Below are positions 5,583 through 33,108 of a DNA stretch of 64,000 nt, one piece after another (position 1 is the first letter of the stretch; the number at the start of each line of letters is the position of its first letter). The notes beneath the pieces are model-generated. The model worked only from the letters and a program-made list of their open reading frames with translations, ran no database searches and had not been told where the DNA came from. Origin of the DNA: a virus. Its lineage: Duplodnaviria; Caudoviricetes. Where the stretch lies: positions 1 through 64,000 of the IMG/VR virus record IMGVR_UViG_3300012952_003952; one strand, given 5' to 3'. A program made the translations under genes and the position numbers.

Positions 5583-5690
5583 ATAGCTGCCCTGGGTAGA
5601 ACACTGTTCGCACTGATTAATCAGTCGTCTGGAGCCGAAAGGCTAGGTTCCCCACTGGCTACCTTGTAAAACCAATCAACGGAGTCCCAC

Positions 5691-5858
5691 ATGGTTTGGA
5701 CAGCACTCTTTAAAAATAACACAGCTTTAACATTTAGTACTCGTTATAACGATCTAAACGAAGCTAAGGAAACTGCAGAGCGCGAAGCAGTTATCAAGGG
5801 CACGTGGGTGATTGCAGTTATCAAGGGTAATTGCGAACAAAATGCGTACTTTATTTAA
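5691..5858 (+). CDS. 55-aa hypothetical protein (MVWTALFKNN...)
   Basis: GGAG RBS; open frame. Not in the supplied track. Confidence 0.55.
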   Translation: MVWTALFKNNTALTFSTRYNDLNEAKETAEREAVIKGTWVIAVIKGNCEQNAYFI

Positions 5859-5899
5859 ACAATCAACCCTGCAGAGTTAATATTTTATTATCAAGGTTC

Positions 5900-6028
5900 G
5901 CCTGGAGGGTTAGGAAGAATCGGCTCAAGCGCCTTCAATCGAGAGACAAGAGACGGGGTAAGCGCTGCCAAGAGCCAATCGCTCGCTGGGACCAAGTATA
6001 TAACGATTTTCTTCCTAACCTTTCAGGC
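5900..6028 (+). ncRNA. Candidate 129-nt structured RNA closed by a ~23-bp stem
   Basis: 5900-5922 pairs with 6004-6028 (two G-U pairs, 2-nt bulge); inner stems GCTC/GAGC and AGCGC/GCGCT. Confidence 0.45.
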
Positions 6029-6051
6029 ATTAACCAAAAAATATATGTTGA

Positions 6052-6097
6052 TTCTGTAAAATTCTCCACTATTTATGGTATAATAGTACTATAAGGT
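6052..6097 (+). promoter_or_regulatory. Conserved 46-bp promoter element, copy 3
   Basis: Same consensus and length as copies 1 and 2. Confidence 0.8.
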
Positions 6098-6110
6098 AAG
6101 GAGCTAATCA

Positions 6111-7487
6111 ATGGCAGTCAAAGCAAATACGGCAGAAACACCAACCGAAGAACGCTATTCCGCAACTGAAGCGGAAGCTGCTGCATTCGATATGGACCGA
6201 TACATGGTCCGCCTCATGTGGGATGAGCCGTTCTACGCCAAGGTTCTTCGCGGCATTAATAAAAAGCGCACCGAACAGATCCCTACGGCTGGTGTTGCAG
6301 TCGTCGATGGTCAAGTAACTTACTACTGGAACCCACGGTTCGTAGCCAGCCTGGAAAAGGATGAGGGTTCAGATAAGATTATTGGCCTCACGATTCATGA
6401 GTGCCTCCACCTCGCATACGATCACTGTACTGACCGTGCGCACAAAGACCACGCAAGGGTTTGGAACTACGCAACGGACCTGGCAATCAACTGTCAGATT
6501 CCGCTTGATAAGCTTCCTAGCTGTGGTATCTGGCCTGGCAAGGAGTTCGAGCCGGTTAAAGAAGAAATCCGTGAGAAGATCGGTGAAGAGCGCGCTGCTA
6601 AGTTTGACGCACTATCCCGTCTGATCGCTGACCTTGACCAACATCTCTCGGCTGAAGAGTACTTTACAATTCTAATGTCCGACAAGGATGCCCAAGAAGC
6701 TATCGAAGGAAATGAAGCTGGTCAACCTGGTGAAGGAATGGGAGAGGATGGATTCGGTTCAGGTATGCCGGGTTCCATGGATGACCACGGTGCTTGGGGT
6801 GATATGTCTGAAGAAGATCAGGCAGTTGCTAAGGCGCAGATTAAGCAAGCCATGGCTGAAGCAGCTAAGGACTGTGATCAAAAGGGTTCCTGGGGATCGG
6901 TCCCTGCAGAGACACGTGCAGAAATCCGTCGGATGATTGCCAATGATATCCCATGGCAGGCAGTACTGAAGAAGTTCGTTGGAATGAGCCGCCGTTCGGT
7001 TCGTCGGACTTCCTGGGGCAAGATTAATAAAAAGAATCCTATGCTGGTACCAGGCAGTAAGCGTTCAATGACCGCCTCAATCGCAGTCTACATTGACCAA
7101 TCAGGTTCGGTAGGTAACGATGAGTTGGAGATGCTGTTCGCTGAATTGGGTAGTCTGGCTAAGAAGACTGAGTTTACCACCTTCCACTTTGATACTTCTA
7201 TCGATGAGAAAAGCGAGACGGTATGGAAGAAGGGTCGCACTCCTCAAGCCCACCGTACCCGGTGCGGCGGAACCTGCTTCAACGCAGTAGTTAATCACGC
7301 CAACAAGAACAAGCATCGCTTCGATGGAATCCTCATCCTCACCGATGGTTACGCTCCTAAGCCAGACCCATGCAGAATGAAGGTGGGTTGGGTAATCACT
7401 CCGAGCGGTACTACCGAATCCTGGATGCAGGGTACCCGGAACTTCATTATCAAGATGAAGGAAGAGCGCAAATCAAGGGCGGCATAA
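6111..7487 (+). CDS. DUF2201-type putative metallopeptidase with C-terminal vWA-like domain
   Basis: HEXXH (IHECLH), WNYATDLAIN, MIDAS-like YIDQSGSV, GGGT-like GGTCF, and LTDGY. Confidence 0.85.
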   Translation: MAVKANTAETPTEERYSATEAEAAAFDMDRYMVRLMWDEPFYAKVLRGINKKRTEQIPTAGVAVVDGQVTYYWNPRFVASLEKDEGSDKIIGLTIHECLHLAYDHCTDRAHKDHARVWNYATDLAINCQIPLDKLPSCGIWPGKEFEPVKEEIREKIGEERAAKFDALSRLIADLDQHLSAEEYFTILMSDKDAQEAIEGNEAGQPGEGMGEDGFGSGMPGSMDDHGAWGDMSEEDQAVAKAQIKQAMAEAAKDCDQKGSWGSVPAETRAEIRRMIANDIPWQAVLKKFVGMSRRSVRRTSWGKINKKNPMLVPGSKRSMTASIAVYIDQSGSVGNDELEMLFAELGSLAKKTEFTTFHFDTSIDEKSETVWKKGRTPQAHRTRCGGTCFNAVVNHANKNKHRFDGILILTDGYAPKPDPCRMKVGWVITPSGTTESWMQGTRNFIIKMKEERKSRAA

Positions 7488-7564
7488 AATAGAAACTACT
7501 CCGTTAGCAGCATACTTATAACTGTCTATAATAGACGATACATCGCAGCTTTCGGAGGTATACC

Positions 7565-7741
7565 ATGCATATATATCAGGTAGGTCAGGTCTGGAGAAAC
7601 ACGTTGAGACCAGAACAGTGGTTCCTAGTAACAGATACGGAGGGTGAGCTCGTTCAGATAAGCGAAGCCAATAAGCAGTCCAAGTGGCTACACCATTCTC
7701 TGCTAGGAAACTGCTATGAACTCCTTAAGGAAGCGGAATAA
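7565..7741 (+). CDS. 58-aa hypothetical protein (MHIYQVGQVWRN...)
   Basis: GGAGG RBS; ATACTTA motif upstream. Confidence 0.6.
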   Translation: MHIYQVGQVWRNTLRPEQWFLVTDTEGELVQISEANKQSKWLHHSLLGNCYELLKEAE

Positions 7742-7759
7742 TATTCTGCTATCTGTATA

Positions 7760-8030
7760 GGGGCCAGTATGGGGGCCCACTGATGGGGCCTATTTTCACC
7801 CCCTATTGGGGCCCCCGAGAAGGCCCCCATTTTTGCCTTTTTAGGCCCCATCTGAGGCCCCTCTGCGGCTCAATCGGGCTTTCTGTCGGGGTGGTTGCCT
7901 AAGGTCGTGTATTTTTTTTCCAGAAAATTTTTTGAAACCAAAAGGCCTTTTTTCTCAGCGCGGTTAAAAATAGAAAATGCTTAGAAACCAAAAATTTTTC
8001 CCGAGAAAATCTGAGGCTAAATGGGTATAG
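7760..8030. other. Non-coding element: phased GGCC boxes followed by A/T tracts
   Basis: GGCC cores at 7762, 7774, 7787, 7810, 7822, 7844 and 7856; poly-A/T tracts 7910-8010. Confidence 0.6.
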
Positions 8031-8079
8031 TACGCAGATAGTGTACAGATTGCTAGAAAATCTTATAATTAAAAGTGTT

Positions 8080-8337
8080 ATGAAAGCAAAAAACAAAAAG
8101 ATAGTCAAGGCTAAACTCGAAGAGGCAGTCCGTATGCTAGAAAATGAAGGGTGTCCTTCCAGCTATCTCGAAGAGTACATAACAGAAATGATGGGCGGTG
8201 AATACGAGCTTTTAAAAGATGAACAGTTACCAGAGGTGCTGGTCTTTATCGAGTACGCCTTGGCCATAAGGCTTCCTGATTATGGAGACTTCAGCGAAGA
8301 GCTTCTACAGAAAAAAGAAATCTTAGGCCTAAAATGA
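8080..8337 (+). CDS. Hypothetical protein
   Basis: ATG at 8080 (the track starts at GTG 8041); stop overlaps the next start. Confidence 0.65.
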   Translation: MKAKNKKIVKAKLEEAVRMLENEGCPSSYLEEYITEMMGGEYELLKDEQLPEVLVFIEYALAIRLPDYGDFSEELLQKKEILGLK

Positions 8338-8669
8338 GGGTCACGATTAAGCAGTTACAGGACCTGGTGGCCGAGGCACGGGGTGAACTTTCAGAGGCGC
8401 AAGCACAACCCCTCAATCCGGTAGGAGATCCTATCTCCGACGAGTATATCGAGGAATTCATATCGGACCTTAAGATGGAGCTCCTCGCTGCGTACATGGA
8501 TGACATTGAGTGGACGGAAGATAAACTGGGTCCCATGGATGCCTTCGAAGACCAGGTTGACGAGATGCTCTCGCAAGTTGAGTTTTACGTGCGTAATCGT
8601 CTCTTAGACCTGTGGGCCGGGCAGTTTGTGGGTGTGGTCTCGTTTAATGAGGCGGACTATGCGGATTAA
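8334..8669 (+). CDS. Acidic protein with degenerate leader (MRVTIKQLQDLVAE)
   Basis: N-terminus resembles the MKITKRQL family. Confidence 0.75.
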   Translation: MRVTIKQLQDLVAEARGELSEAQAQPLNPVGDPISDEYIEEFISDLKMELLAAYMDDIEWTEDKLGPMDAFEDQVDEMLSQVEFYVRNRLLDLWAGQFVGVVSFNEADYAD

Positions 8670-8856
8670 GGAGTATTCTCGTTATAACCCGTATCGTGTC
8701 CAACCCATCCAAAAGTCGGAGGACTATTCCGATCGACATGGATCTGAGCCGCGGGTTCCACCGAAAAAAGAATATGCACCCGTTAAAAGGCTTTTTCGAG
8801 AGAGGGAGGTTATTCAGCCTGTCGGGGTTGGAGTCTTCTTAAGTCGGTGGGCTTAA
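8659..8856 (+). CDS. Small hypothetical protein
   Basis: GAGG before the ATG at 8659; overlaps the previous stop. Confidence 0.45.
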   Translation: MRIKEYSRYNPYRVQPIQKSEDYSDRHGSEPRVPPKKEYAPVKRLFREREVIQPVGVGVFLSRWA

Positions 8857-9137
8857 CGCAGTTTCCTCACTCCTCGTTTTAATTTATTATACGATCGAGT
8901 ATAGTTATTGGTACTAATGTTTCCGCACATGCATAGAAGCTAGTATTTGGAGTCGCTGTTGTTATCCTTATATAATAGAACATGTCACGCACGTAAGGGA
9001 GAATACTCTCCACTTTCGAAAGGTATATTCACTTATGCCGACTTTCACGGAGTGACTGATGACTATTCTGATAACGCTGTAAACGGATATAGGGCCTGTG
9101 ATCATTATGTAGTGGACCGGGATGATTGTCGCGATAC

Positions 9138-9164
9138 GCGACCGGAAGACCGGTCGCATTTTTT
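9138..9164 (+). terminator. Intrinsic terminator-like hairpin
   Basis: GCGACCGG-AAGA-CCGGTCGC followed by ATTTTTT. Confidence 0.7.
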
Positions 9165-9256
9165 AATTTTTAAGGGGCCTGTTTTTCCGAACGAGGCGGG
9201 CCGAAACTGCCATCCGGCAGTTTAGGTTATTGTAATAAAAAAGAATTGGGCTAAAA

Positions 9257-9862
9257 ATGAAGGTTACGAGAAAACAATTAAGGGGAATTATAAGCGAGCA
9301 TATTGAGCTTTTAAAAGAAGAAGAATATGACTGCATTAAAGATTATATGCTCATGGGTTTTTCTCGTAGCGAGGCCATAAAAAAATGTCGAGAGCCGGAC
9401 GACCGCTCTGGCGGTCAGTATAACCGAAGCCGTTACCAGCCAAAGCCTCGTAAAACTTCTTATGTTGGGGCCGGGGCTAATGTTGAAAAAATTGGAGCGG
9501 TCGAATCTGCCTTAGACGCGAAATCTGGAAGGCACGAATTCCTTCAATCAATATTAAAGCAATTAAAGGCAGGGAGAGGTTTATCCGCGAAACAAAATGC
9601 GGTGGTAAAAAAGATCCTTGTAAAGATCGACCCTGAATCAGCTAGCCTTTTTGAAACCAACAGAAAAGAAGCTTATGGAAAAATTCTTTCTGAAAATCTA
9701 TATAAGTTAGTTAAAAAACATGCAGTTGGTGGCGGTGGCCGTACAATGAATGACATGATAGACGATGCTATGGAAGACCCTATGTTTAAAGACTTAGGCG
9801 CAACTAAAGATGAGTTATTAGACGCATTCGACGATTACATGGATGACCTGGCAGGATACTAA
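9257..9862 (+). CDS. Leader-family protein 1 (MKVTRKQLRGIISE)
   Basis: Shared N-terminal leader. Confidence 0.85.
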   Translation: MKVTRKQLRGIISEHIELLKEEEYDCIKDYMLMGFSRSEAIKKCREPDDRSGGQYNRSRYQPKPRKTSYVGAGANVEKIGAVESALDAKSGRHEFLQSILKQLKAGRGLSAKQNAVVKKILVKIDPESASLFETNRKEAYGKILSENLYKLVKKHAVGGGGRTMNDMIDDAMEDPMFKDLGATKDELLDAFDDYMDDLAGY

Positions 9863-9863
9863 A

Positions 9864-10103
9864 ATGAAAATTACTAAAAGACAACTTAGACAGATTATTA
9901 AAGAAGAGAAAGCTCTGCTTGAGGAGCAGTACCGTTCTGGAACTATGAGGGCTGAACAGATCGTTGATATGCTACATGGTAAAGGCGAACCACACACTGA
10001 TATTCTTAGAGCTCTTTATAGCGAAATTCCCGAAGCAGTTATTCCTGTATTGGAAAAATACGCGATGGATAAAGGCATAAACGTTAAATCAGAGAGAGAC
10101 TAA
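9864..10103 (+). CDS. Leader-family protein 2 (MKITKRQLRQIIKEE)
   Basis: Leader begins at ATG 9864. Confidence 0.85.
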   Translation: MKITKRQLRQIIKEEKALLEEQYRSGTMRAEQIVDMLHGKGEPHTDILRALYSEIPEAVIPVLEKYAMDKGINVKSERD

Positions 10104-10104
10104 A

Positions 10105-10449
10105 GTGAAAATTACTAAAAAGCAGCTGCGTCAGATTATTAAAGAATCTTTTCTTACCGAGGGTTCTTCAGCCACTTATTACGGTTCGGGCGGTGATGAT
10201 GAAGTTGAAGTCCGGATTTCTGTACGGTATTCTGACGACGGTTCAGCGGCAATTGATTGGGATGTTAAAAAAGAAAAGTGGAATAGCGAATACAGAGAAA
10301 TGGAAACTGTGACGGTTCATGAAGGCGAGGATAATGATGATCTCAAGCTTTCTAATCTTGACGCGTTATACGAAAAGATCGATGATGATGCCATGGAGCA
10401 AGCTATTTACAGAGCTATGGATAGTTTTAAAGAGGGTGAGTACTACTAA
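10105..10449 (+). CDS. Leader-family protein 3 (MKITKKQLRQIIKES)
   Basis: GTG start; shared leader; acidic cargo. Confidence 0.85.
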   Translation: MKITKKQLRQIIKESFLTEGSSATYYGSGGDDEVEVRISVRYSDDGSAAIDWDVKKEKWNSEYREMETVTVHEGEDNDDLKLSNLDALYEKIDDDAMEQAIYRAMDSFKEGEYY

Positions 10450-11102
10450 TGAAAATCACACGTAGACAACTAAGAAGAATTATTAAAGAGTCCCTTCTTG
10501 TAGAGGGAGAGATGCAAGACATTATTGTTAACTCTTACGAAGACGTAGAACTATATAACATCCTTGCAAACTACGCTCTCAATAACGATATTCAGGGCGC
10601 ACTTGCTGATCCTGAAATAAAGCCTTACGTTGAAAAGAACGAAGTGGGGTGGATATCTGATGAAGCTGGTGGGTGGTTTGAAAACGTTGGAGAATACGAC
10701 GAGATGCCAGCACCAGAAGGTTGGGACAGCCAAAAGGCATACAAGTTCTTAAGAGATCTTGAGGATGCAGCTTGGAAAGTATACGATAAGCAGGCGAGTG
10801 CAGCCATAAAGAACGATCCTGACAAAGAGTTCTTAGAGTTCTTAGGCAATGAGTTCACAAGCATGATAGAGCCCAATGACCTGCCAGATATTAAGTGGAA
10901 AGAGTATAAAAAGTATATTCGAATTAAACCCCCTCGCTCTATATCACATGGCGTTGGAGAGATTAATGTTTCGAAAGAAAGTATCAAAGGTCTCTACCCA
11001 GGCGCCTACGAAGACTTTACAGACTTTTTAACTACACGTACAGGTGGTCAGCTTGGAAGACGCGCACCATACAAGAAATCACCACCACCGATTTACGACT
11101 AG
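10449..11102 (+). CDS. Leader-family protein 4 (MKITRRQLRRIIKES)
   Basis: TAATG coupling; shared leader. Confidence 0.85.
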   Translation: MKITRRQLRRIIKESLLVEGEMQDIIVNSYEDVELYNILANYALNNDIQGALADPEIKPYVEKNEVGWISDEAGGWFENVGEYDEMPAPEGWDSQKAYKFLRDLEDAAWKVYDKQASAAIKNDPDKEFLEFLGNEFTSMIEPNDLPDIKWKEYKKYIRIKPPRSISHGVGEINVSKESIKGLYPGAYEDFTDFLTTRTGGQLGRRAPYKKSPPPIYD

Positions 11103-11110
11103 AGATTATT

Positions 11111-11569
11111 ATGAAAATCACAAAAAGACAGCTTAGAAAACTTATTAGAGAAGCCGAAGGCACTACTAAAAAATATGATGACGATTCTGCTCTACGTGGA
11201 GACCAAGATGAATTACCCGACGTGTTGCAGAAAGGCATTATTGATAAAGCAGTAGAAGACCGTGAAGAGAGAGAAGAAGAAGAAAAGAATGAATCTTTTT
11301 CTATTACCAGGCGCCAGCTTAGGGGAATCATCGCCGAGCTTGGTATCGACCGCATGACAAGTGGTGATAGAGATCCTCGATTAGATGATCAGGACGACAT
11401 TTCCCTTGGCGAAGAAACTTTACAAAAAATGGTTATGCATCTTCAGGCGCTAAATGATTTAGTAACGAGTGAAGCCGGTCAACGGACTGTAGGTGGTAAG
11501 AAAGAAGCAGAACAGATTAAAGCTTTATTACCGTGGGCTCAAGACTATCTAGCATATTGGAGATCATAA
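11111..11569 (+). CDS. Leader-family protein 5, with an internal second leader copy
   Basis: MKITKRQLRKLIRE at the start and SITRRQLRGIIAE internally. Confidence 0.85.
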   Translation: MKITKRQLRKLIREAEGTTKKYDDDSALRGDQDELPDVLQKGIIDKAVEDREEREEEEKNESFSITRRQLRGIIAELGIDRMTSGDRDPRLDDQDDISLGEETLQKMVMHLQALNDLVTSEAGQRTVGGKKEAEQIKALLPWAQDYLAYWRS

Positions 11570-11570
11570 A

Positions 11571-11906
11571 ATGAAAATCACAAAAAGGCAACTTAGAGGA
11601 TTAATTAGAGAGATGTTTATCAAAGAGTACGGAGACGCTCAGGCAATAATACGTAGAGGTCGTTATCCCGACACTAAGCCTCAAACGACGTCCGCACATC
11701 GTCAATCTCTCACATCACAACTTTATGAGGCTGTTATAGAAGTACTTGAGGGAAGGCCTGGCATGTCCGGGGCAGAATTAGTTGATACGGTTAATCAAAT
11801 GCTTCCGTCCGTTGATGCTGAACTGATATACGACTTCCTTGACGAGCTTCTAGAAGACGGTGAAGTCTTCTTCGATGTTGAAGAAGATGCGTGGAGTTTG
11901 ACGTGA
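11571..11906 (+). CDS. Leader-family protein 6, possible C-terminal winged-helix-like fold
   Basis: MKITKRQLRGLIRE; ...MSGAELVDTV...LIYDFLDELLEDGEVFFDVEEDAWSL. Confidence 0.8.
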   Translation: MKITKRQLRGLIREMFIKEYGDAQAIIRRGRYPDTKPQTTSAHRQSLTSQLYEAVIEVLEGRPGMSGAELVDTVNQMLPSVDAELIYDFLDELLEDGEVFFDVEEDAWSLT

Positions 11907-12631
11907 AAATCACTAAGAGGCAGCTTAAAAGAATCGTGGAAAGTAGTTACGAAGAGATCAAAAGAATTCGTGACAGTGGTGACTACTCTTGGCGCGACAT
12001 GGAATACGAAGTAGTAGACCTAATGCAGTCTATGCAGACATTTCCAGCACAAGATGTTATTGATATAATGTATGATGCACTTGATGCCGAAGATAGAGAA
12101 GATGCGAGCTTCTGGCATATGATGTTAGGCAACGGCGGCCATCTTTATCAAGCGCTAGACGGATTAAAGGCTACTGCCGATGAAGAGTATGATCCAGATA
12201 TCCCAATGCAAGAAGCCATGACGCAGACTGCTCATCCCAGATACGGACTTGGTAAGAATATTGCTGATGCTGAATTTCCTATTGCTGTTGGATATGAAGG
12301 CCGATCTGAGACCGTATATGACCAAGATGCTTTAGATGAGCTATTAGATTATCTAACAGTCGATAATAACATTGCTTATTCTCTAGAGTCTCTCCGCGAG
12401 TTAGAGCCTGATAGTGATCCTGTTGGCGCAGGAATCGAAACCTACAGCGAAAGTTTGGTTTTAGAAAAAGTTAACCCTGCGCTTGCAGAGATTGAAAATC
12501 AACTAAGACACACAATGGCAGAGTACATCGACACTTACATGATGTCTATGAGTATGAACCCTGGCGACGTGGCCGACAGGCGGAGAGTCTACCAAAGACT
12601 TGAAGCTCTTGCATCTACACTTATGGAATAA
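11903..12631 (+). CDS. Leader-family protein 7 (MKITKRQLKRIVE)
   Basis: GTG at 11903 overlaps the previous TGA. Confidence 0.85.
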   Translation: MKITKRQLKRIVESSYEEIKRIRDSGDYSWRDMEYEVVDLMQSMQTFPAQDVIDIMYDALDAEDREDASFWHMMLGNGGHLYQALDGLKATADEEYDPDIPMQEAMTQTAHPRYGLGKNIADAEFPIAVGYEGRSETVYDQDALDELLDYLTVDNNIAYSLESLRELEPDSDPVGAGIETYSESLVLEKVNPALAEIENQLRHTMAEYIDTYMMSMSMNPGDVADRRRVYQRLEALASTLME

Positions 12632-12633
12632 AA

Positions 12634-13290
12634 ATGAAAATTACTAAGAGACAATTATTATTACTCGTACGCGAAGCACGTGGTGAAAGTGTTGATGAGG
12701 TCGGTGCAGGTGACGCTGGAGAACTAGAAGTAAACTTATATTCAAACGATGAAGTCAAAGAAGACCAAGAGCTAGTAAATGAGCAATACGTAGTCATGGC
12801 TAATCCAGGTTTTTCTAAGATGAAATCTAGAGCTTCAGATGATCTATTGAGAATATTGGGTAAGACTCAAAAGATGGATGAACAAAAAATAGAAGAAAAT
12901 ATCAACCACATCGTAGGCTCTCTTTTGCAAGAAGGTACAATTTATGTATCTCGCGGATATATGGGCACTCCCATGGTAGAGGATGAAAACGAAGATGCGA
13001 TACTGGCTGGAGAAATGATCAGAGCACTTCTGGACGCTGGAGATGATGATATATTCCAAGCTCCACAAGGTGTGTCATCAGAGGCGCTGCAGAAACTTTT
13101 AAAACAAGACAAAGAAAACCCGCAAGGGTCAATTGAAAACTGGGATAACGACGTATTTTCTGATTATTACAGTGTAGACTTAGATCGAGTTATTCGTCTT
13201 TACGCTAGATTGAAAAATCTCACTGTTGAAGAAATATCAGAAGATGATGAAGATGATGGTACATACGATTTCGAGAGTACTTATTCATGA
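12634..13290 (+). CDS. Leader-family protein 8 (MKITKRQLLLLVRE)
   Basis: Shared leader; very acidic. Confidence 0.85.
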   Translation: MKITKRQLLLLVREARGESVDEVGAGDAGELEVNLYSNDEVKEDQELVNEQYVVMANPGFSKMKSRASDDLLRILGKTQKMDEQKIEENINHIVGSLLQEGTIYVSRGYMGTPMVEDENEDAILAGEMIRALLDAGDDDIFQAPQGVSSEALQKLLKQDKENPQGSIENWDNDVFSDYYSVDLDRVIRLYARLKNLTVEEISEDDEDDGTYDFESTYS

Positions 13291-13406
13291 AGAGATGGCT
13301 TAAACGTAAGGGGATAACTGGTAAAGATATATTCTATATGCTTGCCGGTCTTGTTCCTTTGACTCTATTCGTTGGCCTTGGAATATACGCAGTGGTGGTA
13401 GCTTAA
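13287..13406 (+). CDS. 39-aa membrane peptide (MKRWLKRKGITGKDIFYMLAGLVPLTLFVGLGIYAVVVA)
   Basis: ATGA overlap with the previous stop; fills the gap exactly; one transmembrane segment. Confidence 0.6.
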   Translation: MKRWLKRKGITGKDIFYMLAGLVPLTLFVGLGIYAVVVA

Positions 13407-13407
13407 C

Positions 13408-13617
13408 ATGAAAATTACAAGAAAGCAGCTTAGACAGATTATTAACGAAGCTATAATTTTTGAACAAGGGTGCGCCGATCGAGAAGATGGCTGCATCAGA
13501 CAAGATAAAGATGGCACGTGGTATATACTTAACAATAAGAAAGGTGGAGTCTGGAAAAGAGGTTATAAATCTAAACAGTCCGCGAAAGATTCATTAGCAG
13601 CAATGCACGCAAGGTAG
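13408..13617 (+). CDS. Leader-family protein 9
   Basis: MKITRKQLRQIINE. Confidence 0.85.
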   Translation: MKITRKQLRQIINEAIIFEQGCADREDGCIRQDKDGTWYILNNKKGGVWKRGYKSKQSAKDSLAAMHAR

Positions 13618-13623
13618 AATAAA

Positions 13624-13878
13624 ATGAAAATCACAAAAAAGCAATTAAAGAAAGTTATCAATGAAGTCACCATGGGTGGGGTTGGTCCTGGCTTCCGGGG
13701 ATTTCACGCAGGCGATCAGCACAATAATATTAATGAAGCCATTCCTGGCCCCTTGGGAGATCTAGAAGGTTTGGTTAAACAAGTTTTGGCTATATTTGCT
13801 AGCATGGAACCTGGCCCGGACAGAAATGGGGAAATTTATATGCTGATTGATGAGCTTGAAGATATAGCTAGTAGGTAA
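13624..13878 (+). CDS. Leader-family protein 10
   Basis: MKITKKQLKKVINE. Confidence 0.85.
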   Translation: MKITKKQLKKVINEVTMGGVGPGFRGFHAGDQHNNINEAIPGPLGDLEGLVKQVLAIFASMEPGPDRNGEIYMLIDELEDIASR

Positions 13879-13882
13879 TAAC

Positions 13883-14113
13883 ATGAAAATCACAAAACGA
13901 CGATTAAGAAGAATTATTGCAGAAGAGAAACAGAAGCTTCATGAAGAGCGTCCTGGAAGGGCACAGAGAATGAAAGCTTTCGTTAAGTTGTTGGGAGCAG
14001 CTGAAGAGTATGCTGATTTACATGGGGTAGAAGACGCTATTGACCAGCTACAGATAATCATAGACGACCTCAAAGACGAACTTGAGGGCAACCCCATGGA
14101 TGAAGAGTTTTAA
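13883..14113 (+). CDS. Leader-family protein 11
   Basis: MKITKRRLRRIIAEE. Confidence 0.85.
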   Translation: MKITKRRLRRIIAEEKQKLHEERPGRAQRMKAFVKLLGAAEEYADLHGVEDAIDQLQIIIDDLKDELEGNPMDEEF

Positions 14114-14114
14114 G

Positions 14115-14342
14115 ATGAAAATCACAAAAAGACAACTGCGAAGAATTATCAAAGAAGAGAAGCAGAAACTTGCTGAAGAGATTAGCTACACAATTCCTGG
14201 CATGGACTCCACACCTTACGTAAGGAAAATGGGAGTTGTTCTACAGGATCTTGCCGATCAGAACGCTAGCCAAGAAGAACTAGTTCTAGTACTTCAGGGA
14301 CTTATCGACAACGTTAATGACGGTTGGTATCACGAGGATTAA
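14115..14342 (+). CDS. Leader-family protein 12
   Basis: MKITKRQLRRIIKEE from ATG 14115. Confidence 0.85.
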   Translation: MKITKRQLRRIIKEEKQKLAEEISYTIPGMDSTPYVRKMGVVLQDLADQNASQEELVLVLQGLIDNVNDGWYHED

Positions 14343-14343
14343 A

Positions 14344-14640
14344 ATGAAAATTACAAAGAGACAACTTAAGAGAATTGTTGCAGAAGCTATTCGCGGAAGT
14401 AGCGTAAGAACTCAAGCACCATTTATCGATACTGTAATAGCAGCACTTGAAGCTGGAGACCCAGTAACCGCTGCAAATGCGGTGATGGACAGCTATATGA
14501 TTGATGACACTTTTGTTGAAGAAGAAGACGCTCTAATAGATATATTAGGCGGTCTCCCGTATGGAGCTTCTGTTGACCAAATAGAAATGGCTGCTGAAGC
14601 TTGGTTAAAAAATTATCGCGCTGGTAATCTGCGCCCTTAG
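14344..14640 (+). CDS. Leader-family protein 13
   Basis: MKITKRQLKRIVAE from ATG 14344. Confidence 0.85.
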   Translation: MKITKRQLKRIVAEAIRGSSVRTQAPFIDTVIAALEAGDPVTAANAVMDSYMIDDTFVEEEDALIDILGGLPYGASVDQIEMAAEAWLKNYRAGNLRP

Positions 14641-14655
14641 AAATCAGAGAATAGA

Positions 14656-14955
14656 GTGAAAATCACGAAAAGAAAACTGCTGAAGATTATTAGAGAGCAA
14701 CTTGAGCTTGAAGTAATTCCTTTACAAGTTGACGTAGAATCTCCAAAAAAGATGGGTGATGGCGGACCAGCGAAAATGGTTAAAGCGCAACTGTTTCAAG
14801 TTGCAAAAGACGCCCAATCTTTAAATGATAAACTAAGTGAAGAAGATGAGCTTCCAGAGTGGGTGCAAAGTAAAGTTGCAGTAATGTCTGACAACATGAG
14901 CGCTGTGGCAGATTATCTTCAATATAAAATACACAAGCACGATAATAATGGTTAA
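14656..14955 (+). CDS. Leader-family protein 14 (LPEWVQSKV cargo)
   Basis: GTG start; MKITKRKLLKIIRE. Confidence 0.85.
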   Translation: MKITKRKLLKIIREQLELEVIPLQVDVESPKKMGDGGPAKMVKAQLFQVAKDAQSLNDKLSEEDELPEWVQSKVAVMSDNMSAVADYLQYKIHKHDNNG

Positions 14956-15017
14956 AATATTTAATATATAGAGATATCAGGAGTATTCTCCGTGATTAAC
15001 ATCAACAAGGATTCAAA

Positions 15018-15488
15018 ATGAAGATTACAAGAAGACAGCTTAGGAGACTTATTAGAGAGTCTTGCGGAGATGCTCCAGCAGTTGCCGAACCTGTTGCAGT
15101 TGAACTTGCACCAGCTGCACCTGTTTTAGAAAGCGCAACCCCAGAAGCAGATTTAATGATAGAAATGGAAGTGGCCAGTCGGGCACTTGAACAAGTAGTA
15201 GAGTCAGTTCAAAATGCTGCTCACTTATGCCAAGACTGTGTACCAGAAGTAGCAGCCCAAGCTCCACTCATGGAAGCAATGGTGTCTCAAGCGGTAGCAC
15301 TTCAGGAAAGCTTAGAAGCCCAAGCAATGGTAGTTGCAGAGTCTGCTGAAGAAGATCTTCCAGTATTAGACGCAATAGCAGATGCTGCGGAAATGGTGGC
15401 GGATGTTGTAGATCCTATTGCTGAGAGAAGACAGTCTCGTAAGGGAGTAACAATGGGCTTTAGCGGTCCTGGTTTTGGTGGAAAATAA
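15018..15488 (+). CDS. Leader-family protein 15, Ala/Glu-rich helical
   Basis: MKITRRQLRRLIRE. Confidence 0.85.
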   Translation: MKITRRQLRRLIRESCGDAPAVAEPVAVELAPAAPVLESATPEADLMIEMEVASRALEQVVESVQNAAHLCQDCVPEVAAQAPLMEAMVSQAVALQESLEAQAMVVAESAEEDLPVLDAIADAAEMVADVVDPIAERRQSRKGVTMGFSGPGFGGK

Positions 15489-15490
15489 TT

Positions 15491-16117
15491 ATGAAAATTA
15501 CTAAAAGACAACTTAGAAGAATTATTCGTGAAGAATCCCACGAATATGGTGGCGGTGCTCATGAGTATAAAAGAGATGACGGCCACAGAGCTGGCGACGT
15601 AGGTGGCCACTATAAAGACTATGAAGGGCACTGGGGCGGTGATGAGGGAGATGATTCCGAAACGCATCCAGGTCATAAAGATTATGAGGGTGACGATGTA
15701 CACCACAAAGCTAAAGCAGCTGTTGCAGCAATCCAAGATCTTGCCAGTGCTGCCGGTGCAGATATAGAAATGGAAGTTGGAGATGATGATCTCGAACCCG
15801 GTGGGCAAGATCTAGGAGTAACAATGGAAAATAGACGTAGAAGAAGAGTCGCTAGACTTTCAGAAAGACAGCTTAGAAGAATCATTCGCGAAGAAAAGAG
15901 AAGACTTCGCGAAGACAGTATCGATGATGAGTTAGATAATCTTCACAAAAACATCGGAGATGATATAGACCACATCAAAGATCTTAAAGATGATATTCAC
16001 GACGAAAGAGAAGAAGAGCACCGAGCTGAATTAGAAAAAGAACGCCATGAGGAATCTCTGCGAAGAGAAATCAGAAAAATGGTTAGAGAAGCTAGGCGCA
16101 GTAGAAGAAGAAGATAA
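15491..16117 (+). CDS. Leader-family protein 16, His/Asp/Gly-rich with an internal leader copy
   Basis: MKITKRQLRRIIREE; internal LSERQLRRIIREE; Arg-rich C-terminus. Confidence 0.85.
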   Translation: MKITKRQLRRIIREESHEYGGGAHEYKRDDGHRAGDVGGHYKDYEGHWGGDEGDDSETHPGHKDYEGDDVHHKAKAAVAAIQDLASAAGADIEMEVGDDDLEPGGQDLGVTMENRRRRRVARLSERQLRRIIREEKRRLREDSIDDELDNLHKNIGDDIDHIKDLKDDIHDEREEEHRAELEKERHEESLRREIRKMVREARRSRRRR

Positions 16118-16136
16118 TTCTGTTGTAGGAAATTAA

Positions 16137-16481
16137 ATGCTTAGTGAAAAAAAACTAATTCAAATTATTCGTGAAGAACTTGAAGCTGATAGTAAAAAGA
16201 TCCCTACCGGCGATGTAGACGTTGCGAAAGGCCCTGAGTCTATCGAAGACGTAGAAGCTAGAGAAGGCGCTTGGGCTGGTGGAGATAATTTAGTTTTAGA
16301 CGTAGACCAACCTAAAGCCTCCGGCGCGGAGAGTAATACTAAAGGGCAAGAAATAATGAAAATTACTGAAAGCTTAAACAAGGTTGTCTACGAACTAGAA
16401 AACGCTCAAAAAAGAGGGATCCCGCCGCAAGCTTTTACTTTACTTGAGTTATACAAGCTGCAAGATAAATTTAAGAAATAA
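16137..16481 (+). CDS. Protein with degenerate leader (MLSEKKLIQIIREE)
   Basis: Leader-like N-terminus; AGGA RBS. Confidence 0.75.
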   Translation: MLSEKKLIQIIREELEADSKKIPTGDVDVAKGPESIEDVEAREGAWAGGDNLVLDVDQPKASGAESNTKGQEIMKITESLNKVVYELENAQKRGIPPQAFTLLELYKLQDKFKK

Positions 16482-16485
16482 TTAG

Positions 16486-16710
16486 ATGCCATTTAAGTCT
16501 GAAAAGCAGAGACGTTGGATGTGGGCTAATGATCCGGAGATGGCACGTAAGTGGACGGATGAAGAAAAAAAAGAAGCTCACCATGAAGAATCTGACTTGG
16601 AAGAAAAAGCATCAGAAGATTTTAAAAAATTATTTGATGTCGACAAACACTCAGTAAAAGAATCTCAACTTAGAAAAATTATTAGAGAAGCCATTGCATA
16701 TTTAGCGTAA
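16486..16710 (+). CDS. Small protein (MPFKSEKQRRWMWAN...) with the leader motif at the C-terminus
   Basis: C-terminal VKESQLRKIIREA. Confidence 0.8.
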   Translation: MPFKSEKQRRWMWANDPEMARKWTDEEKKEAHHEESDLEEKASEDFKKLFDVDKHSVKESQLRKIIREAIAYLA

Positions 16711-16726
16711 GGCCTTAGGAAAAACA

Positions 16727-17095
16727 ATGAAAATTACTAAAAGACAACTTAAGAGAATTATACGTGAAGAAAGAGCTCGAGTTATACGAGAGCAAGATGT
16801 CAACCAGGGAGACAACCACGACCACCACTGGCCAAGAGTTGACTGGGATAATTCCGTTGGAGAACTAGTAGATTCTTGGGCTGACATGGAAATTAATTCT
16901 TTTGACTCTGGAGATCCATCAATGAATCCCACCGATGGAGATGCAACAGTTGCCGACAATAAAGCGTACTGGGCTGAGCAAGTCGAGTCTGCAATGCTTG
17001 ATTTAGAGAATGAAGTTACTGTAGCTATTAGACAAGTAGTGCTAGCTAAAATGAAAGAAACTAGCGAAGCACTAATGAATGGTGATTACGCATAA
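16727..17095 (+). CDS. Leader-family protein 17
   Basis: MKITKRQLKRIIREE. Confidence 0.85.
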   Translation: MKITKRQLKRIIREERARVIREQDVNQGDNHDHHWPRVDWDNSVGELVDSWADMEINSFDSGDPSMNPTDGDATVADNKAYWAEQVESAMLDLENEVTVAIRQVVLAKMKETSEALMNGDYA

Positions 17096-17143
17096 AATAT
17101 TCTAGATATTTTCTCTAAATAAACTATTTGTTATAATAGAGTT

Positions 17144-17680
17144 ATGTTTAAAGAAGCAGTATCTAGAAATAAATTCTATTTAGGCCCTTTAGAGATTAGG
17201 GAATCGACTATTAAGGGAGCTGGATATGGTGTTTTTGCGACTGAAGATATTGGCAAAAATACTCTTATTGAAAGATGTAATATAATAAAGTTTGACAGGT
17301 GGCTCTTAAAGCTTTACAGAGATGAACGTCTAAGTAGACACCTCTTGGCAGATTATATTTTTAAGTGGCCAGGTGGTCATGAAGTAGCTTTAGCCCTCGG
17401 TTACGGAAGCATGTATAATCACGGTAATGAACCGAATGTGTTGTGGAGATATTGCACTCCAGATACTAGCTTGCATGATGATGGTCTTCATGTTTACGAT
17501 AGCAAACTAGAAGCGCTGGAATTTTGGACTAAAAAAGCAGTCAAATCTGGAGAAGAACTAGTGACTAACTATGGTAGAACTAGCGAATTTGGAGGATCAG
17601 ACGATTTTATTGGGGACTCGGATGTGATCGATAGAGTCGGCCGTGGAGATGGGGGTCTTGGAGACCTTTTCAAACGATAA
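17144..17680 (+). CDS. SET-domain protein-lysine methyltransferase
   Basis: GAGYGVFATEDI, GSMYNHGNEPN (the RFINH/NH-x-C-x-PN equivalent), and GEELVTNYG. Confidence 0.9.
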   Translation: MFKEAVSRNKFYLGPLEIRESTIKGAGYGVFATEDIGKNTLIERCNIIKFDRWLLKLYRDERLSRHLLADYIFKWPGGHEVALALGYGSMYNHGNEPNVLWRYCTPDTSLHDDGLHVYDSKLEALEFWTKKAVKSGEELVTNYGRTSEFGGSDDFIGDSDVIDRVGRGDGGLGDLFKR

Positions 17681-17878
17681 ACGCTCTACGTCTGTTAGAG
17701 TTTCTGTATGCACGGTTAATATTTCTCCAGTCTCTAAAAGATAAATAGCCCAGCCTTCTTCTGTTTCGTTGTCTTCATTAGATTCACCAATTGCTATAGA
17801 ATCAGCTTCTACTTTGCATTTTTCTAACAATAGTACTATGCCTTGGTCTAGCCAAGTTTTAATTTCTCCTGCTTTCAT
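17597..17878 (-). CDS. Hypothetical protein (MKAGEIKTW...)
   Basis: ATG at 17878 coupled (ATGA) to the upstream peptide; its 3' end overlaps the SET gene. Confidence 0.5.
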   Translation of the reverse strand: MKAGEIKTWLDQGIVLLLEKCKVEADSIAIGESNEDNETEEGWAIYLLETGEILTVHTETLTDVERLSFEKVSKTPISTADSIDHIRVPNKIV

Positions 17879-18000
17879 TTTTTTCTTTTGTTTTTCCAAT
17901 TGATGAATGCCCAGTACCCTTTTTCTGAAACTATGCTAGCTAAATAGCCCAGCCCGATAAAAAAAGCTACAGCTCCAACTATTTGTAGCATATCACTCAT
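17875..18000 (-). CDS. 41-aa membrane peptide (MSDMLQIVGAVAFFIGLGYLASIV...)
   Basis: AAGGAG RBS; one transmembrane segment plus a basic tail. Confidence 0.55.
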   Translation of the reverse strand: MSDMLQIVGAVAFFIGLGYLASIVSEKGYWAFINWKNKRKK

Positions 18001-18099
18001 TTCAACTCCTTTATTTTATTATAACAAACCAAGTTTGATTTTTCATATTTTGCGTTACTCTGCGAGTATCTTATATTTATTAGAGGTACCGCGTGAAAT

Positions 18100-18336
18100 A
18101 TGTCTCTTGTCGAAGCTTTTAAAGAGGGCGACCTCGTGTTTATTGATAAACCAGATGCTGGTTCTCTTGGCCCTCTGTGTCCAATAAAAAACAGCGGAGT
18201 TGGTCTTATAGTTAAAATTAAACCAACTAGAGTATTCCCAGGCCCTAGGGAAGAAAATCTCTATACGATATTATTCGGTGGAGAAGTGCAAGATATTTTA
18301 AAAGAGAATATAAACAAAATCAGCGTTGATATTTAA
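18100..18336 (+). CDS. Hypothetical protein, SH3-like pattern
   Basis: FKEGDLVFI...GVGLIVKI...YTILFG. Confidence 0.65.
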   Translation: MSLVEAFKEGDLVFIDKPDAGSLGPLCPIKNSGVGLIVKIKPTRVFPGPREENLYTILFGGEVQDILKENINKISVDI

Positions 18337-18358
18337 TCTATACAAAGGAGATTCTAAT

Positions 18359-18619
18359 ATGCTCATCAAGAAAAAAGAGCTGAGAACTATAATAAAGGAA
18401 GCTGCTAGTCTCATAAACGAAGGCCACGGTGCTCCTTGCCCCATATCTACAGCAAATCAACTGCACGCAGCCGGAGCTACAGAAGTAGATTTACAAAATT
18501 TTATCAATAGTTTAGTAGATCAATTTGCAAGAAGTAGAGAAGTTACCAGATCCGCTCCAGGATCATCACACGTCACCACGCCACAGCGCGGTGGCTTAAT
18601 AAGAGGCTTTGGATTTTGA
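18359..18619 (+). CDS. Protein with degenerate leader (MLIKKKELRTIIKEA)
   Basis: AAGGAG RBS before ATG 18359. Confidence 0.75.
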   Translation: MLIKKKELRTIIKEAASLINEGHGAPCPISTANQLHAAGATEVDLQNFINSLVDQFARSREVTRSAPGSSHVTTPQRGGLIRGFGF

Positions 18620-18786
18620 TAGCTAAACAAAAAGAAGAAAAATTATCTCAACTTTATTCCTCATATAAAAAACTTCAGATGCTTTATGTCTCTAAAGACC
18701 TTCATCTAGAAGAAAAGAAACAGATTGGAATGGCTATTAAATCTATAAGAAAAGCAATACTTTCAATAAACAAATCGGATCGTTAA
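18616..18786 (+). CDS. 56-aa basic hypothetical protein
   Basis: TTG start overlaps the previous TGA; ends immediately before the next ATG. Confidence 0.45.
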   Translation: MIAKQKEEKLSQLYSSYKKLQMLYVSKDLHLEEKKQIGMAIKSIRKAILSINKSDR

Positions 18787-19011
18787 ATGTCAAACAAATT
18801 ATTTTTTCAATCAGAGCTTATACCAAAAGAATATAGAGATTGGTTTGAGACTCAATTTTTCAAAGCTTTACACGGCGGCAAGAATATTAGTATGGGCGGA
18901 AGTCCAATCGCAGCAGTAGAAAAAGTGGTCGATGAATTTAAAGATGAGAATGAAAAAATTAAAGAATCTCAAGTTGAAACTGAAGAAGACCCCAAAATAA
19001 CTAAAGAGTAA
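18787..19011 (+). CDS. Hypothetical protein
   Basis: 74-aa ORF in the operon. Confidence 0.7.
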   Translation: MSNKLFFQSELIPKEYRDWFETQFFKALHGGKNISMGGSPIAAVEKVVDEFKDENEKIKESQVETEEDPKITKE

Positions 19012-19018
19012 TTTTAGA

Positions 19019-19339
19019 ATGAAGCTTCAAGAAAAAATATTAAGAGAATATGTCTCTTTTCTACTTGAGGCTCCCCTTGGTGTCGAACAACAAATTGGCT
19101 ATGGAAAAAATTATCATACCGTGGACCCGCAGCCTATTACGTGGGAAGACTATCCGGGGTTGGAGTATAATATAGCAGTCGATCCGGATGGATCTGTATG
19201 GGCATCTGTGGAGGTCTTAGACTATCCAGAGATGTCAACGCCGGAAAGAAAATGGGCGGACGAAGCTACTGCCATGGCCTGGATAAGAAATGAGTATGAT
19301 GCTCTTCATCGAAGATTAATGAACTCTAAATCCGAATAA
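19019..19339 (+). CDS. Hypothetical protein (N-terminal ILREYV..LLE)
   Basis: 106-aa ORF. Confidence 0.75.
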   Translation: MKLQEKILREYVSFLLEAPLGVEQQIGYGKNYHTVDPQPITWEDYPGLEYNIAVDPDGSVWASVEVLDYPEMSTPERKWADEATAMAWIRNEYDALHRRLMNSKSE

Positions 19340-20071
19340 GACTTCCCAGCTATATAAAAATTCAGATAATTCTTCGTGCGTAGAAGCTATTCCTATGTTA
19401 TCATTATCCATGAGAGCAGAGTGGATTACTCCAATGATTTCAAATTCTTTGTTTAACACTGCGGCACCTGAACTTCCGCTCTGCGTTGGGATAGTGTATA
19501 TATCATCTTTGCCGTAAAAAGTGTTTGCGATACCGGAATACAAACCTTCAAACACCGGTACAGCTCCAGGATACAAAAACCCTCCTGGCGCTGCGATAGC
19601 GTAAGCTTTTTCTCCAATAAGTGGAGGTTCAATAGATAGGTTTACTGGTTCTGTCCAAATTTCAGGAATTCTTAAAATGCACAGATCTTTATCTATGTCG
19701 TTAAAAACAACAATTGCTTCTCTTGAATACCCATTAAAGTCAACTATTCCATTTTCTATTATTACTTCATCATCATGATATGCTTCTAATATTTGTCTGT
19801 AGAATGGCGGAGTGCAAACATGATTTGCTGTTAAAACGTAGCTATTAGAATCGTCAACATAAAAAACTATTCCAGATCCCACTGCGCTAACGCTATTTAA
19901 TTCGCCGTCGGAATTCAAAATTATGTCAGTTTCTATTTGGGCAAATGCGTCAACTGGTAAGTAGACTGGGTCGTGTTTTTTCAACCCTCTGATTTCTTGT
20001 CCATGAATCCATATTATTCCTGTCATCATGCAGAGCATGGTAAAAAATAGGAAACGGTATAGAGACTTCAT
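19316..20071 (-). CDS. Trypsin-like serine protease with N-terminal signal/anchor
   Basis: Catalytic triad contexts LTANHVC, DKDLCIL and GSSGAAV; GSGIV. Confidence 0.9.
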   Translation of the reverse strand: MKSLYRFLFFTMLCMMTGIIWIHGQEIRGLKKHDPVYLPVDAFAQIETDIILNSDGELNSVSAVGSGIVFYVDDSNSYVLTANHVCTPPFYRQILEAYHDDEVIIENGIVDFNGYSREAIVVFNDIDKDLCILRIPEIWTEPVNLSIEPPLIGEKAYAIAAPGGFLYPGAVPVFEGLYSGIANTFYGKDDIYTIPTQSGSSGAAVLNKEFEIIGVIHSALMDNDNIGIASTHEELSEFLYSWEVLFGFRVH

Positions 20072-27446: not shown

Positions 27447-27460
27447 AGTAAGAGGGTACC

Positions 27461-32739: not shown

Positions 32740-33108
32740 GGGCCCGAAACGGCTTCGACGGGGTAGGAGAGAACGAGAGTGCAGGTGGTCACACGAAATA
32801 GCGGACCTTAAACGCGGTTTCAAAACTTTAATTGCCAATAACAATTATCACTTCGAATCTGCCCGCTTAGCGGCTTAATCGGTGGGGTTGCTTAAGACCT
32901 TATTACCCAATTTAAGATAGCAGGTAGAGATCCTGCGAAATAAAAAAATCAGAACGGTTTCCTGGAAACAGGCGGGGCGCAACAGGTTGATAAGCGCAGG
33001 GTTAATCAACTACCTTTTCTAATTTGTGATAGTAAATTAGACAAACCTGTGAATGACTTGACTTTGAAGCTATTGCGGACGCGGGTTCGACTCCCGCCGG
33101 GTCCACCA
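32740..33108 (+). ncRNA. ssrA: tmRNA (369 nt)
   Basis: Acceptor stem GGGCCCG/CGGGTCC with G3-U pair and ACCA end; GCTTCGAC at the 5' end; T-arm GCGGGTTCGACTCCCGC; tag ORF 32834-32878 encodes ANNNYHFESARLAA. Confidence 0.96.

Follow-up and report, generated by a model that had tools for sequence, protein, structure and literature searches.

A tandem array of small genes (8334-17095) on an uncultured marine phage contig encodes proteins that share a 14-residue N-terminal leader attached to dissimilar, mostly acidic cargos. The array lies in the window analyzed here, which comprises the first 64 kb of the 241,978-bp IMG/VR contig IMGVR_UViG_3300012952_003952 (G000). Judging from sequence comparisons, the balance of probability leans towards the leader being a capsid-targeting propeptide in the style of phage T4, which a gp21-type prohead protease would remove after Glu14.

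According to the mechanism that we propose, the basic amphipathic helix of the leader would guide the protein behind it into the core of the prohead during assembly; the scaffold there is strongly acidic. The gp21-type protease would then cut after the invariant Glu14, with Ile at P3 and Glu at P1, and cleavage would free the mostly acidic cargo inside the head. The cargo genes would be exchangeable cassettes, of which each genome has 17-41; they are strung together in tandem arrays with translational coupling, and members of these arrays are gained, lost and reordered. We infer every step of this route, from binding to the core and cleavage to retention in the virion, ejection into the host and a role in anti-defense or takeover, and it would be a further step for the acidic cargos to stay in the DNA-filled head and be injected.

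The leader and its copies

The strict form of the leader consists of MK[IV]T[KR][KR][QRK]L followed by [ILV][IV]xE, with the glutamic acid at residue 13-14. Its consensus is MKITKRQLRRII[KR]E, which is 14 residues long and basic, with a net charge of about +5. Copies were located with the list of open reading frames (ORFs), a six-frame motif scan of the whole contig and the gene table. A sequence-only reading of the window had named 17 gene starts, from 9257 to 16727, all of which encode the strict leader with Glu at residue 13-14, and the degenerate copies that it listed at 8334, 16137 and 18359 proved to be real. The array genes share one orientation, as had also been noted, and are mostly spaced by 1-8 nt or overlap, TAA-A-ATG being a common junction between them. 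Three of the 17 strict genes (10105, 11903 and 14656) start with GTG. ORF calling places the starts of four genes further upstream, at 9843, 11891, 14082 and 14317; the conserved MKIT start is more likely to be the initiation site.

The whole contig contains 26 strict copies, since the 17 in the window are joined by a second array of nine leader genes at 229618-232520. This second array was absent from the sequence-only reading, as were three copies that are not N-terminal, two of them internal (11303 and 15866) and one C-terminal (16666). A hidden Markov model (HMM) built from the first 16 residues and searched against the six frames of the contig gave 30 matches (per-hit E-values, 6e-11 to 0.17), every one of them in frame on the + strand and confined to the window array plus 18359 and the second array. 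No other leader match was obtained in the six frames, where the next best hit had an E-value above 1, which excludes chance as an explanation. The codons for Ile, Thr, Arg and Leu vary synonymously among the copies while the amino acids are fixed, indicating that conservation acts on the protein and does not reflect recent duplication of DNA. A Sec or Tat signal is ruled out from the sequence, as no hydrophobic h-region follows the basic stretch. Outside the arrays of G000, an isolated gene at 168278 (+), encoding 252 amino acids (aa), has a partial leader-like N-terminus, MNEKQIRNYIRKIIKEQ, that scores 8.4 bits and ranks second among N-termini outside the arrays.

A search with the back-translated exact leader retrieved 64 stretches from about 45 marine IMG/VR contigs, many of them 170-293 kb long and often with arrays. 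In the complete relatives, the profile matched 17 times in G002, 28 times in G003, 31 times in G001 (293 kb, with terminal repeats) and 41 times in G005. A cultured Flavobacterium phage gave a single weak partial match to the profile. A literature search with the leader string and its sub-strings found no paper.

All fetched loci were pooled, which yielded 273 unique leader proteins of 41-418 aa with a median of 102. The search pattern had left positions 9-14 unconstrained, and among these 273 proteins the positions were occupied by Arg (84 %), Arg (74 %), Ile (92 %), Ile (97 %), Lys or Arg (66 % and 23 %) and Glu (99 %), respectively. Ile12 and Glu14, which correspond to P3 and P1, are thus the two most conserved of the unconstrained positions. 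The information content is 3.3 bits at position 14 and then falls to 1.8, 1.1 and below 0.9, reaching about 0 by position 23. Six proteins in the pooled set contain 2-4 copies of the leader. These ORFs with 2-4 in-frame leaders, of up to 418 aa, are found at L053:3696-4949 (+) and five other loci, and their internal leaders are often directly preceded by G/N-E-S and a Val, a potential GTG start. They could be polyproteins, or neighboring genes that have lost the intervening stop codon.

Protease sites, head module and cargos

By its gene content, the source genome is T4-related. A T4-type prohead protease, which the sequence-only reading had suggested looking for, is encoded at 134373-134984 (Peptidase_S77, Pfam E-values 4e-25 and 2.8e-24; PHROG_207 head maturation protease, E-value 6e-50), and two tandem gp23-type capsid genes are located at 139110-142965. 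Identity of the capsid protein to that of any deposited phage does not exceed 44-47 %, the nearest relatives being Flavobacterium phage immuto (44 %), two uncultured huge phages, Microcystis phage Mel-JY01 and Rhodothermus RM378. The interval between the portal and capsid genes encodes several small products and, at the place of the scaffold, an acidic protein of 549 aa. The small genes beside the protease matched no Pfam or PHROG family, and they were therefore not called as gp67 or gp68.

T4 gp21 cuts after L/I-x-Glu, and the T4 capsid-targeting sequence (CTS) is 10-19 residues long with P3 and P1 as the determinants of processing (PMC9026906). The end of the leader, II[KR]E, fits the gp21 consensus [IL]-x-E. 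The more specific pattern [ILV][ILV][KR]E has a background frequency of 0.46 per 1000 aa of the proteome, and each of the roughly 630-aa capsid proteins contains it exactly once, at residues 58-61, as VLRE/A (VLKE/A in G005; the slash marks the putative cut). When the capsid protein is aligned to solved structures, the N-terminus of T4 gp23* maps within about six residues of this site, and VLRE/A is accordingly placed as the predicted maturation site of the capsid protein. The head module as a whole contains seven occurrences of the pattern compared to 1.4 expected, including one in the scaffold and one at residue 12 of a 140-aa gene product encoded after the protease.

This gene, of 140-153 codons, is conserved two places 3' of the protease. 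In G005, its product begins with MAKITKRMLKGIVKE, which scores 14.4 bits against the leader profile, the highest score among about 640 ORF N-termini outside the arrays, and has an E-value of 3.9e-4 in a six-frame search of the genome. The corresponding N-termini are MAKISKSMLKGIVKE in G001, where it ranks third, and MAKISRNALKGLVKE in G000, and the product of the next gene carries KITPNFLKRIVVEE in G005. Leader-like N-termini on head-module genes beside the protease connect the leader to the head module. A predicted co-fold of the gp21-like protease with g14115 gave a score of 0.00, which is no answer and counts neither way.

The cargos are as dissimilar as had been claimed, since an all-against-all BLASTP search gave only one convincing pair, g11571 and g230125 (E-value 2e-7). 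The 273 pooled proteins fall into 159 cargo clusters, of which 114 are singletons. Their acidity was likewise borne out, with an isoelectric point (pI) after the leader below 6.5 in 18 of 21 window products and mostly between 4.1 and 5.0. No Pfam match above the cut-off was found among the 17 scanned of the 20 leader-family proteins in 8334-17095, nor for the 36 largest cargo representatives from other contigs. Med8 was rejected as the family of g14656 because the match was below the threshold, and a protein atlas search with two cargos gave only scores below 0.8. Homologs of the g14115 protein were found 93 times in metagenomes, and every one that was read back carries the leader. In orthologs of g10449 as distant as about 42 % identity, the leader is nearly unchanged; this cargo family ends in an invariant PPxYD.

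Cargo structures were predicted with AlphaFold2 (AF2) for g14115 and g10449 only. In the model of g14115 (predicted local distance difference test score, pLDDT, 82), a leader helix at residues 5-22 is followed by a weak linker and a two-helix cargo. The model of g10449 (pLDDT 88.6; predicted template modeling score 0.73) contains a leader helix at residues 5-16 and then a confident alpha/beta domain, and the pLDDT drops below 50 only at residues 15-19, right behind Glu14. The separate helix and weak linker in these models suggest that the leader can be detached and is flexibly tethered to the cargo. A fold search with g10449 gave no match at E <= 0.001 in PDB, AFDB clusters or BFVD, and the highest VIA Z, 7.5, was obtained for a helical sub-bundle and lies within the stated background of the tool. 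The modeled cargo domain of g10449 thus apparently represents a new alpha/beta fold.

The cargo turnover that the sequence-only reading had proposed to follow is fast. Homologs are present in the syntenic array of G001 for 12 of the 21 family genes in the window, at 35-90 % identity and in scrambled order, compared to 95 % identity for the protease of the two genomes, and three genes of the second array in G000 have their homologs in the first array of G001. A relative, found in DNA and in two RNA runs, has position 11567 joined to 14114; gene 11111 ends and gene 14115 starts at this joint, so that six leader genes are skipped. This suggests loss or gain of cassettes at leader boundaries. The source DNA run contains a similar joint, 11597 to 14115, and its contigs also break at leader copies. 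The joint and the breaks could reflect strain-level variation in cassettes or assembly ambiguity at the repeat. As contigs break and join at the leader copies, the leader DNA probably mediates cassette exchange as a by-product.

Expression and competing explanations

To place the arrays in the infection cycle, we considered promoters and transcripts. Sigma70-like promoters, TTCTGTAAAA...TGGTATAAT, are found before the flanking genes of the arrays, not before the arrays themselves, and two terminators are located 5' of gene 9257. The T4 late promoter TATAAATA shows no enrichment (7 copies on the + strand, 6 on the - strand) and was ruled out as the late promoter here. Another motif, AATATTTA[TCA], is strand-biased, with 17 copies on the + and 3 on the - strand (G000, 66-155 kb plus window position 14956). 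Its intergenic copies lie 24-103 nt 5' of portal, scaffold and tail-region genes, and in G001 the motif occurs at the orthologous sites before portal and scaffold. It is also present inside the end of the protease gene, 34 nt 5' of a 151-aa gene, in G000 and G001 alike. The copy at 14956 is the sole intergenic one outside the structural region and is placed 62 nt 5' of leader gene 15018, and G001 has a copy at the head of the syntenic array. From this distribution, AATATTTA[TCA] is a candidate late promoter for the lineage.

Two seawater metatranscriptomes contained contigs that are 93-96 % identical to the window and cover 14917-17077 almost continuously. They start at 14917 and 14987 and end at 17051 and 17077, although contigs of this kind, here from one study, cannot give strand, ends or level. 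The contigs are nearly empty over the early-type flanks at 7.4-9.0 kb and 17.4-19.4 kb, and in the same two RNA runs the scaffold gene and both capsid genes are covered by long contigs. These results fit the view that the distal third of the array, at least, is expressed late.

The sequence-only reading had proposed that the leader addresses a payload to the capsid. The points of the T4 analogy that can be tested in sequence all speak for this, namely the protease, the I-x-E end, the match to the capsid site, the leader-like N-termini in the head module and the turnover, while the payload part lacks a recognizable cargo function in the Pfam searches of 17 window cargos and 36 others. Several further observations weigh against a capsid-targeting propeptide. 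The leader is basic and unrelated to the T4 CTS MKTYQEFIAE, with which it shares only the initial MK and the terminal I-x-E in a comparison by eye, and it was not found in 50,697 GenBank phage records by megablast of the region or by tblastn of a leader protein and a natural 4-leader polyprotein. A pI below 5.5 was obtained for 85 % of the pooled cargos, which is unexpected within packed DNA, and the internal proteins of T4 are basic. Glu14 is followed by a semi-conserved EEKxKL, and the leader helix is predicted to extend to residue 16-22 in about half of the family. The protease was found in 14 of 15 long leader-bearing contigs searched (4 of 4 of those at least 90 % complete), or in 15 of 16 with G000, but its co-occurrence is necessary rather than discriminating, being trivial within a T4-like clade. 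The G000 copy of the 140-153-aa head-module gene does not score above noise with the leader HMM, and the late motif and the RNA support are restricted to the 15.0-17.1 kb part of the array and to contigs of one study. Finally, the neighbors of the arrays have sigma70-like early promoters, and early regions typically contain small genes packed tightly together.

The last of these points lead to the strongest alternative, that the leader is an uncleaved module on non-virion early or middle takeover proteins. It would then be either a helix that docks onto a single hub (host RNA polymerase, the ribosome, nucleoid DNA or a phage protein) or a shared N-terminal degron that times destruction. We give this explanation a real but minority chance. 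Apart from the early-type surroundings, it would accommodate genes that are small, tightly packed and fast-evolving, as in the early regions of T4, the contrast between a strongly basic leader and acidic cargos, and a helix that often runs past Glu14. It leaves unexplained why Ile12 and Glu14 are near-invariant, why conservation ends sharply at a protease consensus that is matched in the capsid protein, and why head-module genes have leader-like N-termini. Nor do the arrays have an early-type promoter of their own; the first array is insulated by terminators, and part of it appears with late genes in RNA. If the leader does dock onto another hub, it would represent a new kind of phage-wide sorting or regulatory signal.

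A second alternative keeps targeting to the prohead core and cleavage but takes the cargos to be expendable accessories of the core or scaffold, like fragments of T4 gp22, gp67 and gp68, that are degraded or expelled before packaging and serve, for example, to adjust the size of the head or fill charge. In their acidity the cargos resemble scaffold and core proteins (the 549-aa scaffold is highly acidic), leader-like N-termini are found on genes in core positions, and most T4 core fragments leave the head (PMC9026906). We nevertheless regard this as unlikely, as 159 unrelated cargo families with strain-level turnover are unexpected for structural helpers, and the cargos include at least one conserved globular domain that is well folded and has no internal protease-type sites as far as examined.

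It is less probable still that the leader is there to be recognized by a modifying enzyme, such as a SET methyltransferase (17144-17680) acting on leader lysines or a radical-SAM enzyme. The SET gene abuts the array in G000 and G001, and a conserved leader with a hypervariable core in tandem arrays is reminiscent of the precursors of ribosomally synthesized and post-translationally modified peptides (RiPPs). However, a SET gene was found in only 4 of the 16 leader-bearing genomes, among them 1 of the 4 complete ones, and a radical-SAM gene in 5, never beside the arrays. Some of these genomes lack both enzymes, and in most of them neither gene adjoins the leader genes. The cargos are proteins of 55-400 aa, two of them modeled as folded, rather than short cores rich in Cys, Ser or Thr. 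These co-occurrence counts rule out either enzyme as an obligate partner of the leader. Conservation at the level of the nucleic acid, as an A-rich translation-initiation enhancer or a recombination cassette boundary with an incidental peptide, would agree with the A-rich leader codons and with contigs that break or join at leaders (including the joint of 11567 to 14114) but has a negligible chance of being correct, being largely refuted by codons that vary synonymously under fixed amino acids and by an amino-acid logo that is near-invariant over about 45 contigs.

The T4-style propeptide can be extended to a broader proposal, which we advance tentatively and with less than even confidence. 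An uncultured marine T4-related lineage with genomes of roughly 240-290 kb may have placed about 10 % of its genes (17-41 per genome) under one 14-residue label for the capsid loading and co-injection of acidic, fold-novel and rapidly exchanged proteins. This would be the largest sequence-predictable injected repertoire of any phage, shuffled by recombination at the leader, and the freed basic leaders would possibly act as counter-ions for DNA. Should the leader indeed serve as a capsid-targeting propeptide, a string of 14 residues would predict, from metagenomes, the set of packaged or injected proteins of abundant ocean phages, and hundreds of fast-evolving uncharacterized proteins would become prime candidates for anti-defense and host takeover. 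The CTS principle of T4 would extend from 3-4 proteins to dozens with a different tag, fusions of the leader to reporters would provide a tool for loading proteins into the capsids of non-model phages, and the presence of many acidic proteins alongside packed DNA would pose a physical puzzle.

Array features, neighboring genes and known systems

The features of the window array are listed in Table 1.

Table 1. Leader genes and associated elements in the window, in order of position
Feature	Coordinates	Strand	Product length	Remarks
Degenerate leader gene, MRVTIKQLQDLVAE...	8334..8669	+	111 aa	Acidic; first gene of the syntenic block; ortholog heads the G001 array
Two intrinsic-terminator-like hairpins	9138..9223	+		9138-9157 and 9204-9223; just 5' of the first strict leader gene
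Leader gene 1, MKVTRKQLRGIISE	9257..9862	+	201 aa	
Leader gene 2	9864..10103	+	79 aa	
Leader gene 3	10105..10449	+	114 aa	GTG start
Leader gene 4 (g10449)	10449..11102	+	217 aa	Cargo belongs to a conserved family, at least 150 clusters
Leader gene 5	11111..11569	+	152 aa	Second, internal leader at 11303-11338, ITRRQLRGIIAE
Leader gene 6 (g11571)	11571..11906	+	111 aa	Cargo related to g230125 of the second array
Leader gene 7	11903..12631	+	242 aa	GTG start; Glu at residue 13
Leader gene 8	12634..13290	+	218 aa	
Leader gene 9	13408..13617	+	69 aa	Among the few basic cargos
Leader gene 10	13624..13878	+	84 aa	
Leader gene 11	13883..14113	+	76 aa	
Leader gene 12 (g14115)	14115..14342	+	75 aa	
Leader gene 13	14344..14640	+	98 aa	
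Leader gene 14	14656..14955	+	99 aa	GTG start
Candidate late-type promoter element, AATATTTAA	14956..14964	+		Intergenic
Leader gene 15	15018..15488	+	156 aa	
Leader gene 16	15491..16117	+	208 aa	Internal leader at 15866-15898, RQLRRIIREEK
Degenerate leader gene, MLSEKKLIQIIREE	16137..16481	+	114 aa	
Gene without N-terminal leader	16486..16710	+	74 aa	C-terminal leader-like stretch at 16666-16695, QLRKIIREAI
Leader gene 17	16727..17095	+	122 aa	Last gene of the array
Outlying degenerate leader gene, MLIKKKELRTIIKE	18359..18619	+	86 aa	Same place in G001

Between the first degenerate leader gene and the first strict one, 587 nt (8670-9256) of relatively high G+C content contain no convincing ORF and end in the two terminator-like hairpins. 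An Rfam search of 7400-19400, which includes this non-coding stretch, gave no match.

The neighbors of the array in the window include a MoxR-like ATPase, a DUF2201 metallopeptidase/VWA protein, a SET-domain protein, a PrkA/DUF444/SpoVR trio, PhoH and a helicase. The MoxR-like AAA_5 ATPase and the DUF2201 putative metallopeptidase/VWA protein are encoded at 4500-7487 (+), each with an early-type promoter of the form given above. The SET-domain gene, on the + strand (Pfam E-value 7e-10), lies directly 3' of the array with a promoter-like site, TGTTATAAT, before it, and occupies the same position in G001. A trypsin-like serine peptidase (19316-20071, Trypsin_2, E-value 4e-14) is encoded on the - strand, opposite to nearly all genes, and its hydrophobic N-terminus indicates that it is probably secreted or membrane-anchored. 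The DUF444/SpoVR/PrkA trio, a bacterial stress-kinase module, is complete at 24953-29401 (+), with E-values from 1e-107 to 1e-134. ARAGORN identified a phage transfer-messenger RNA at 32740-33108 (+) with the tag peptide ANNNYHFESARLAA.

Among known systems, the closest is the CTS of T4, which is found on the internal proteins IPI, IPII and IPIII and on Alt, and is removed by gp21 (PMC9026906, PMC3012670). A conserved CTS with diverse cargos is established for the T-even phages (PMC3012670, PMC9026906), and the leader family would thus be an expansion of that idea rather than a new principle. In both cases, a T4-related genome with a gp21-family protease encodes a short N-terminal propeptide (a putative one here) that is common to unrelated proteins and ends in [IL]-x-Glu, with a length of 10-19 aa in T4 and 14 aa here. 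The cargo genes are also located away from the head gene cluster and hypervariable among related phages, like those of the T-even internal proteins (PMC3012670). The leader differs in its numbers, with 26-30 copies in G000 and 17-41 in complete relatives compared to 3-4 in T4. It also differs in its organization in long tandem, translationally coupled arrays, in the polyprotein-like occurrence of 2-4 leaders in some proteins, and in that the cargos are mostly acidic and the T4 internal proteins basic.

In the phiKZ-like giant phages (phiKZ, 201phi2-1 and SPN3US), head, inner-body and ejection proteins are cut by diverged gp21 homologs after S/A-x-Glu (PMC9026906, PMC5694885). These phages resemble the present lineage in being giant and in loading many proteins into the head (at least 19 are processed) with gp21-like cleavage after Glu, and many of the proteins are ejected in the phiKZ-like phages. 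Their propeptides are instead long and without a single shared short tag, the proteins form paralogous families, and both the cleavage motif and the phage lineage are different.

Families of RiPP precursors, for example the prochlorosins, combine a conserved leader with a hypervariable core in multi-copy arrays. They are similar to the leader genes in having an invariant N-terminal leader, diverse sequences after a defined boundary residue and many tandem genes. The leader studied here is by comparison just 14 aa long, the "cores" are proteins of 55-400 aa, two of which were modeled and both as folded, and no dedicated maturase co-occurs, with SET and radical SAM at the frequencies given above (4/16 and 5/16). 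Overall, the leader family appears to share with T4 the features that can be examined in sequence, which are the protease, the shared short propeptide, the cleavage consensus and the hypervariable cargos. Specialists would find it surprising that one tag is so invariant and used on such a scale in an abundant lineage of ocean phages.

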